Positions 38,974 to 39,325 of a stretch of DNA of 64,000 nt are shown in pieces; within the stretch, counting starts at the first letter, position 1; the number at the start of each line of letters is the position of its first letter. The notes below the pieces were generated by a model. The model made no database searches. It saw only the letters and a list, made by a program, of their open reading frames with translations, and was not told where the DNA came from. The position numbers and the translations under genes were made by a program. The stretch lies in NCBI RefSeq assembly GCF_000027125.1, contig NC_017626.1; one strand, given 5' to 3'. The stretch is from Escherichia coli 042 (GTDB lineage: Bacteria; Pseudomonadota; Gammaproteobacteria; Enterobacterales; Enterobacteriaceae).

Positions 38974-39325
38974 ATGATACAGAGTAGAAAAATCAAAGAG
39001 TTAAAAATTTTTCTTGGAATAAATGTCTTAAAATCGTACACGAAAAATCAATGAATTACATAACATTAAAGAAGAATATTCCAAGCCTTCTTGAGTCCAC
39101 CACCTGTTTTCAGGTGTCATTCAGACGTGATTTGCCCCAGATTGGGAAAGCACGCTTTTTTTCTCAGCTTATTCCGTTTTGCCTGTGTTTTGCCTGTGTG
39201 TTGAATAATTCCACTGCCGTTATATAAAATCAGTAACGGCTGGAAATCATTCAATACTCGCACTATCGAAAGTTAACCAGCCAGCCGCAGTATCCTATCA
39301 TGGCAAGTTACTGCGGCTTTTATAT

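Follow-up and report, generated by a model that had tools for sequence, protein, structure and literature searches.

A prophage end in serU of Escherichia coli with a probable attP arm, a linker with a short duplication, and a widespread lambdoid hairpin element

A stretch of 352 bases (38974-39325) in a 64-kb window of E. coli DNA is non-coding and forms an ordinary end of a lambda-like prophage in the tRNA gene serU. (By the window, we mean the whole stretch of DNA that was analysed; positions refer to it unless we state otherwise.) To judge from sequence comparisons, this segment is a mosaic of three parts with different histories: 38974-39169, 39170-39223, and 39224-39325. The best explanation for the whole, and one that we think is probably right, is that the first part is the P arm of a serU-type attP, the second is a linker that contains a neutral duplication, and the third is a terminator module of lambdoid phages.

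Part of the window is E. coli chromosome, with msrP, msrQ, and zinT. The alignment to the K-12 genome covers 38465-38973 and ends there, at the boundary between host and phage. Two features frame the segment:

38912-38973, minus strand: the displaced 3' 62 nt of serU, the gene for tRNA-Ser(CGA); identical to serU of K-12
39326-39613, minus strand: a convergent 95-aa phage gene of unknown function (phrog_1443); its stop codon is 8 nt from the hairpin that we describe below

The original prediction had placed the segment just inside a copy of an att site. This was correct, as the K-12-identical end of serU can be read as the copy of the att core at the integrase-distal (attR-type) junction, with the segment just inside the prophage. 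With ARAGORN, no complete tRNA gene was detected in the window. The prophage continues for 40.9 kb to the right in GTEN_97 and strain 4/0, which are two near-identical genomes, and its far end there consists of a frameshifted tyrosine integrase gene, a gap of 27 nt, and an intact serU. The core in the window is of the host type. The copy of the core that adjoins the integrase gene in these two genomes has two compensatory substitutions of the phage type, so the crossover should have occurred between 38955 and 38973, in the part that encodes the anticodon stem-loop. The integrase gene is annotated as frameshifted in both genomes (loci L005, 16810-17860, and L153, 2673-3723), so the att arm may be out of use and the prophage may not be able to excise. 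To the right of the segment are the 95-aa gene, a gene for a tail-fibre tip protein, and a gene for an 801-aa tail fibre, all on the minus strand.

The segment had also been described as non-coding, and we agree. Its sole sizeable open reading frame (39051-39227, plus strand, 58 aa) does not match any family in Pfam or PHROG, has no RefSeq annotation in a genome that is 98.7% identical, and would be frameshifted by an 11-nt indel that distinguishes the lineages.

We also note some other observations from the window. First, yodB is absent: in K-12, it lies between zinT and serU, which are about 1 kb apart there, while in the window, 222 bp of unrelated sequence (38243-38464) is the sole spacer between two K-12-like blocks. 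Second, within the gene for the 801-aa tail fibre is a 189-nt tandem duplication (42045-42523), which is built from sub-repeats of 42 and 147 nt and encodes a stretch that is rich in Ala, Ser, and Thr. Third, DsrA (21521-21607, minus strand) and RseX (29943-30032, plus strand) are in their expected chromosomal places, and these are the window's sole matches to Rfam above the gathering score.

The part of the segment that adjoins the core contains these features:

38974-39169, no strand: serU-type attP P arm, a block of the integration module, as indicated by its conservation in serU phages and prophages
38991-39003, plus strand: IHF-consensus site AATCAAAGAGTTA, which matches WATCAANNNNTTR
39046-39058, plus strand: IHF-consensus site AATCAATGAATTA, a perfect match to the consensus
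38896-38908, minus strand: a third match to the IHF consensus, which lies outside of the segment
39013-39021, minus strand: candidate arm-type integrase site TATTCCAAG, the inverted copy of a repeated motif
39077-39085, plus strand: candidate arm-type integrase site TATTCCAAG, the direct copy
39123-39162, plus strand: a weak hairpin and then seven T's (39156-39162), on the outer margin of the att block; a candidate tI-like terminator

It had been suggested that the segment might be the residue of a phage's attP arm. Comparison to related phages bears this out for 38974-39169, which is a conserved block. Its identity is 96-98% to the phages ev099, PhiR70_1, and mEp332 and 92-98% to 17 prophage ends from IMG/VR; also, 38975-39089 is 90% identical to the SerU-LTIIb prophage. 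The segment has the other traits of a lambda-type attP arm as well: the core is identical to attB and has host DNA on its far side, a motif that is distinct from the core is found in both arms, there are IHF-consensus sites, and the block is conserved among phages that use the same attB.

The shared motif, WATTCCAAG, occurs five times in the reconstructed attP of 719 bp, as compared to 0.02 copies expected (P about 5e-11). Three of these copies are in tandem within the 3' end of int in close relatives (AAAATATTCCAAG, AAAATATTCCAAG, and TAATTCCAAG), and the other two are in the P arm. The copy at 39013-39021 is invariant across all of the related ends, including the divergent SerU-LTIIb. In the alignment of related ends, the columns of the arm sites and of the IHF sites do not clearly exceed the columns around them in conservation. 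As for IHF, the 64-kb window has six consensus matches, three of which are within 38896-39058, and the site at 38991-39003 belongs to a 17-nt direct repeat with 39042-39058; six matches across the window is not a significant enrichment over the 3.0 expected. The copies of TATTCCAAG are the likely arm-type sites, and we present them as candidates only. The layout would then be that of a classical lambda-type attP, with tandem sites next to int and two more among the IHF sites on the opposite side. We infer that integrase (at TATTCCAAG) and IHF would bind the P arm and so build the recombination complex.

The comparison to lambda holds in several respects. Like the P arm of lambda (P1/P2 and H1/H2), this arm adjoins the core on the side that faces away from int, and its length is about 100-200 bp. 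Both systems have a short motif that occurs in both arms and is in tandem by int, and two IHF-consensus sites are interleaved with it. On the other hand, the core is the 3' part of a tRNA gene and gives 62 bp of identity, instead of 15 bp in lambda; the predicted motif is TATTCCAAG, with two P-arm copies that are mutually inverted; and we identified no Xis-type sites.

At the outer edge of the arm, the weak hairpin lies about 150-190 nt from the core, which is the distance of the annotated sib of HK97, and the block that is common to ev099-type phages stops right after the run of seven T's. In the excised phage, this hairpin may stop transcripts of the integrase gene in the manner of tI. Like tI-sib of lambda and HK97, it would be a plus-strand (int-sense) stop across attP from int. 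But it resembles sib in position only: the sequences are not similar, and its predicted stability (-9.7 kcal/mol, z -0.45) is no better than that of shuffled sequences.

In ev099 (L001, 2661-3195), PhiR70_1 (L006), and mEp332 (L007), there is a fossil of the same attR junction. It comprises 278 bp of the E. coli chromosome from downstream of serU, the 62-nt fragment of serU, and the P arm. It is next to a gene for an AraC-family regulator and IS remnants, and an unrelated integrase gene is 2.4 kb away. The fossil looks like a relic of an old aberrant excision, that is, a pickup of the specialised-transduction type.

At the inner end of the segment is a conserved lambdoid element, which begins at 39224 and runs up to the 95-aa gene:

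39224-39282, plus strand: 5' part of the element, nearly invariant, (G/A)TAAAATCnGTAACGGCTGGAAATCATTCAATACTCGCACTATCGAAAGTTnACCAGCCA
39283-39325, plus strand: putative terminator hairpin (39283-39318) and U-rich tail, as indicated by its fold, by covariation, and by Term-seq of homologues
39201-39230, plus strand: promoter-like sequence TTGAAT-18 nt-TAAAAT, which matches at 9 of 12 positions; its -10 hexamer is formed by the first conserved bases of the element

The segment's 352 nt match 198 phage records, mostly over 39224-39325, and the element is present in lambda, HK97, HK75, mEp460, phiP27, and Stx-converting phages. It is also present in 5385 of 5426 complete genomes of E. coli, with a median of two places in each. 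From IMG/VR, we gathered 49 distinct versions of the element. Its first 60 nt are nearly invariant across the collected versions, (G/A)TAAAATCnGTAACGGCTGGAAATCATTCAATACTCGCACTATCGAAAGTTCACCAGCCA, while the flanking sequences are unrelated between classes of loci and diverge exactly at the edges of the element. Within the region, we found five promoter-like sites, as compared to 3.9 expected in shuffled sequence.

In lambda, the element is at 24190-24259, between ea31 and ea47 in the b region, in the direction of the ea genes and 3 kb from sib. K-12 has a full copy in the ykgJ-ecpE gap (304224-304310, minus strand), which is beside a decayed remnant of dinI and 30 nt upstream of ykgJ, and another full copy at the left end of Qin (1632470-1632568, plus strand). 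There is a copy of just the hairpin in Rac of K-12 (L146, 10729-10769). The window contains a hairpin-only copy of the element's 3' part as well, at 7381-7418, between yedL and a DUF5503 gene; it reads GCAGCACATTCTTGCATTCGACGTGCTGCG and then CCTTTATT and is 87% identical to the consensus.

At most loci, the element starts 7 nt past the stop codon of an 82-aa gene of the DinI family (PF06183, phrog_189). The promoter of this phage dinI has a TTGACA that is overlapped by two LexA boxes (15 of 19 loci). So the typical order is the LexA-box promoter, dinI, 7 nt, the element, and a convergent gene, which may be tfa, a Pin-type invertase gene, or the 95-aa gene; in many relatives, the hairpin is 10-15 nt from the end of the convergent tfa or invertase gene. 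In a second class of loci, a P4-type integrase gene precedes the element by about 90 nt. In HK97, as annotated by its authors, xis, int, and the att core are followed by sib, the element (2 nt past sib), and a convergent tfa. With dinI, int, or sib recurring on one side of the element and tfa, Pin, or the 95-aa gene on the other, the element marks the place where leftward transcripts of accessory or integration genes meet the end of the late operon. The window's copy has no dinI and no plus-strand gene of any kind upstream. Two relatives, L133 and L143, have 2.6 kb and 1.8 kb of cargo between the element and the 95-aa gene (at the equivalent of 39290-39335), which makes the 3' edge of the element a point of cargo exchange.

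It had been proposed, from an inverted repeat with a T-rich tail, that this end of the segment would terminate plus-strand transcription. The inverted repeat is real: its arms, AGCCGCAGTA (39283-39292) and TACTGCGGCT (39309-39318), are fully complementary, with 16 nt between them, and are followed by TTTATATTT. As plus-strand RNA, the hairpin is predicted to fold at -17.3 kcal/mol (z = -3.9), and none of 200 shuffles was as good. Like an intrinsic terminator, it has a stable G+C-rich stem (10 bp) and a plus-strand U-tract directly after the stem (UUUUAUAUUU, which is interrupted). Instead of a short loop of 3-8 nt, it has 16 nt with only two inner pairs, and this is why a simple terminator scan, which allows loops of 3-8 nt only, missed it.

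Comparison of 38 variants of the element indicates that the stem is maintained. Compensatory changes are found in 7 of the 11 stem pairs, a score that 0 of 500 shuffles reached, and sliding the stem partners out of register destroys the pairing. If the variants are read on the plus strand, G-U cells outnumber A-C cells by 37 to 8. At least 4 T's occur in the 8 nt past the stem in 25 of the 38 variants on the plus strand, and there are never more than 4 on the minus strand; the U-tract is missing from the other 13 variants and from the lambda copy. Taken together, the covariation, the bias towards G-U pairs, and the T-tract on the plus strand imply that the hairpin works as RNA in the plus orientation.

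Transcript ends have been mapped at the homologues in K-12. The Term-seq data of Adams et al. 2021 (PMC7815308, supplementary files 1 and 3) includes orphan 3' ends at the hairpins of the element, with 88,000-99,000 reads at 304212/304213 (minus strand) in all three conditions and 2,000-3,000 reads at 1632571/1632574 (plus strand). These ends are a few bases past the stem, on the sense strand of the element, and the flanking sequences that are printed with them are those of the element's hairpins. The K-12 homologue's Rho score is 1.44, which is not significant, and its score as an intrinsic terminator is 2.78, which is slightly below the authors' cut-off of 3.0 (PMC7815308), so the 3' end could stem from processing. 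The original prediction had named conservation at related prophage ends and the mapping of transcript ends as checks, and both came out in its favour: the element is conserved, and 3' ends lie at its homologues. Overall, the evidence supports the reading of the hairpin as a plus-strand terminator, and for the window's copy, this support comes by way of its homologues.

If so, the hairpin and its U-tract would end plus-strand transcripts, which are leftward on the map of lambda (the "b-region" direction). In other phages, the transcripts that are stopped would come from the SOS-controlled dinI or from int. Here, the candidates are transcripts that read through from the integrase gene once the phage has excised, transcripts that enter the prophage of a lysogen from the chromosome, and a short RNA from TTGAAT-18-TAAAAT. 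Stopping them would prevent antisense transcription of the tail-fibre operon. The window's element may be a leftover that is kept for its terminator, or it may be read from the local promoter-like sequence. Another proposal was that the hairpin may insulate cargo genes from chromosomal read-through. This could happen in the prophage, but it is not what the element is kept for, as the same element is found after dinI, after int or sib, and in the b region of lambda.

Terminators at the boundaries of morons in lambdoid phages were reportedly described by Juhala et al. in 2000. Like them, the hairpin ends an independently transcribed accessory gene (the LexA-controlled phage dinI) at a mosaic junction where cargo is exchanged. 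Unlike them, the element has 60 invariant nt upstream of its hairpin, and it persists without dinI (here, in lambda, in HK97, and upstream of ykgJ in E. coli).

A terminator alone does not need 60 invariant nt, so the terminator reading leaves the body of the element unexplained, and this body may be a small RNA. The element could be the gene for a trans-acting, base-pairing RNA of about 85-90 nt, either with its own promoter or cut from the 3' UTR of dinI. We consider this possible but doubtful. The details are just as tentative: the RNA would start near 39237, from TTGAAT-18-TAAAAT, and the hairpin would be both its terminator and its Hfq-binding module. The 60 nt upstream of the hairpin are nearly invariant even though both flanks differ, and the 90-nt stretch is predicted to fold well (-28.8 kcal/mol, z = -4.5), but the first stem (GGCTGG/CCAGCC) never covaries. 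Similarly, the element begins exactly at the TAAAAT hexamer, but there is no conserved -35 in its other sequence contexts. In K-12, the orphan 3' end upstream of ykgJ is abundant (88,000-99,000 reads), and no dinI promoter is left there. Against this, no Rfam family matches, and we did not find the element in the part of the supplementary files of the EPEC Hfq RIL-seq study that was searched. A search of the supplementary files of an older small-RNA sequencing paper on K-12 also gave nothing at the K-12 copies.

There is a precedent in DinR of Klebsiella pneumoniae, which is an Hfq-dependent small RNA that is cut from the 3' UTR of dinI (PMC10907235). As with DinR, most members of our family lie between the stop codon of a dinI that is under LexA control and a terminator. 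However, they follow a phage dinI, not the chromosomal one, and the window's copy has no dinI. (The 3' UTR of the chromosomal dinI of E. coli is unrelated to the element.) Nor does the element appear to pair with the ribosome-binding site of ftsZ as DinR does: by duplex energy, the pairing is no better than for shuffles.

More broadly, the hairpin could be the 3' end of an undescribed family of abundant RNAs of about 90 nt, whose invariant 60-nt body would act as a regulator in trans or in cis and link the SOS induction of prophages to host genes; we would not bet on this. Such a family is found in lambda, HK97, Stx phages, and many other lambdoid phages, normally as the 3' UTR of the SOS-induced phage dinI, with one copy fixed upstream of ykgJ in the E. 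coli chromosome and another in Qin.

Known small RNAs do not account for the element. svsR is located at the 3' end of cI; the Pas small RNAs are in the Q/lysis region; AgvB and AsxR are at the pR' moron site; and EcsR2 is in the yagU-ykgJ gap, not the ykgJ-ecpE gap. In Rfam, searches with the region and with the whole window gave no match on 39224-39325 at E <= 1, a search with a K-12-type copy gave no match at E <= 10, and the families that the element does not belong to include AgvB, AsxR, Esr41, STnc100, and IsrG. A search of a set of papers with the element's sequence string gave no match, and we found no name for the element in the papers that were searched. We also considered pairing with GcvB. 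The consensus AAAGTTCACCAG (equivalent to 39268-39279) is a perfect 12-nt complement of nt 43-54 of GcvB (CTGGTGAACTTT), and 15 of 500 shuffles equal this. The window's copy, AAAGTTAACCAG, has one mismatch to GcvB, and 162 of 500 shuffles do as well. Given this mismatch, and because nt 43-54 of GcvB are not a known seed, the pairing is probably due to chance.

Another explanation, which we think is unlikely, is that the hairpin mainly ends transcription on the minus strand, which has the 95-aa gene and the late tail-fibre operon; it would then be a terminator of the late operon or one that works in both directions. It is well placed for this, with the stop codon of the 95-aa gene 8 nt from the stem and with convergent tfa or invertase genes ending 10-15 nt from the hairpin in many relatives, and the minus-strand RNA folds well too (-20.1 kcal/mol, z -3.2). 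But past the stem, that strand reads UGGCUGGU, and no member of the family has more than 4 U's in the next 8 nt. Furthermore, the 37-to-8 excess of G-U pairs favours the plus strand, and the 3' ends in K-12 are on the sense strand of the element.

It is quite improbable that the strong hairpin is a retroregulator of the sib type, in which RNase III would cut the read-through transcript and the int mRNA would be degraded in the excised phage. The geometry would suit this, with int, the 27-nt gap, the 62-nt core, about 310 nt, and then the hairpin, all in the sense of int, and the hairpin is separated from int in the lysogen. However, the annotated sib of HK97 is a separate hairpin that abuts the element on its upstream side; the element in lambda is 3 kb from sib; and in most phages, the element follows dinI rather than int. 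So the strong hairpin is neither homologous to an annotated sib nor placed like one, and it is better viewed as a separate module that adjoins sib in HK97. We prefer the plus-strand terminator.

Between the P arm and the terminator module is a short linker with a repeat:

39170-39223, no strand: linker that only these related serU prophage ends have; a search of the phage database gave no match
39176-39197, plus strand: two tandem copies of GTTTTGCCTGT, an 11-bp duplication that is specific to a lineage

The original prediction included a tandem repeat here with a unit of 12 nt. The repeat does exist, but its period is 11 nt: there are exact copies of GTTTTGCCTGT at 39176-39186 and 39187-39197, and then a partial GTG. 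At random, 64 kb would have about 0.015 exact tandems of 11 nt (64000/4^11), so this is not a chance occurrence. The linker is carried by 580 of the 5426 E. coli genomes, and from bands of coverage and identity, we estimate that roughly 130 of these 580 have two copies of the unit. Among the viral contigs that are related to the segment, 14 of 17 have a single copy and 3 have two. In the alignment of related ends, two copies are found in the window's own lineage only. In the single-copy version, GTTTTG and GTGTTG are 11 nt apart, which makes them a plausible substrate for slippage, and replication slippage in the linker would have duplicated the 11 bp to give the tandem repeat. The repeat thus appears to be a recent neutral duplication or indel with no demonstrable function.

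That it is not an integrase site, as had been suggested, follows from its being single-copy in most relatives and absent from the arm on the integrase side (900 bp). In lambda, X1-X2 and P'1-P'3 are direct tandem sites, and the tandem TTTTGCCTGTG, which is about 200 nt from the core and in direct tandem and is too exact a duplication to be chance, might by analogy be bound by proteins at the attP arm, either by integrase at arm-type sites or by Xis at a pair of sites like X1/X2; but this is very improbable, given that most related ends have one copy, that the other occurrences of TTTTGCCTGTG in the window are unrelated, that the repeat is outside of the block shared with other serU phages (ev099-type phages and SerU-LTIIb), and that a different motif, TATTCCAAG, fits the pattern of arm sites.

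In one relative (L139, 626-1879), an IS3-family element, which we take to be IS911, has inserted where the att block meets the linker, at the equivalent of about 39173, with a 3-bp target duplication. We considered whether the 11-bp duplication is the footprint of a transposon and rejected this, as the target duplication in L139 is a few bases upstream and that locus is single-copy. We also dropped a predicted hairpin at 39209-39245 (z -4.7), which is not conserved in the single-copy relatives.

The finding as it was flagged matters little: it is a neutral indel repeat within a standard prophage end, with an att arm and a terminator. The by-product of this analysis is a structured element of about 100 nt that textbook phages carry, as do 99% of complete E. 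coli genomes. Its hairpin covaries and published data show strong 3'-end signals, yet its copies are not annotated in K-12, RefSeq, or Rfam. If the invariant body of the element is functional, this would add a prophage RNA that is tied to the SOS-controlled dinI moron. If the body has no function, the element would still be useful to mark the point where the integration or accessory region gives way to the tail-fibre operon, which is a site of cargo swaps.
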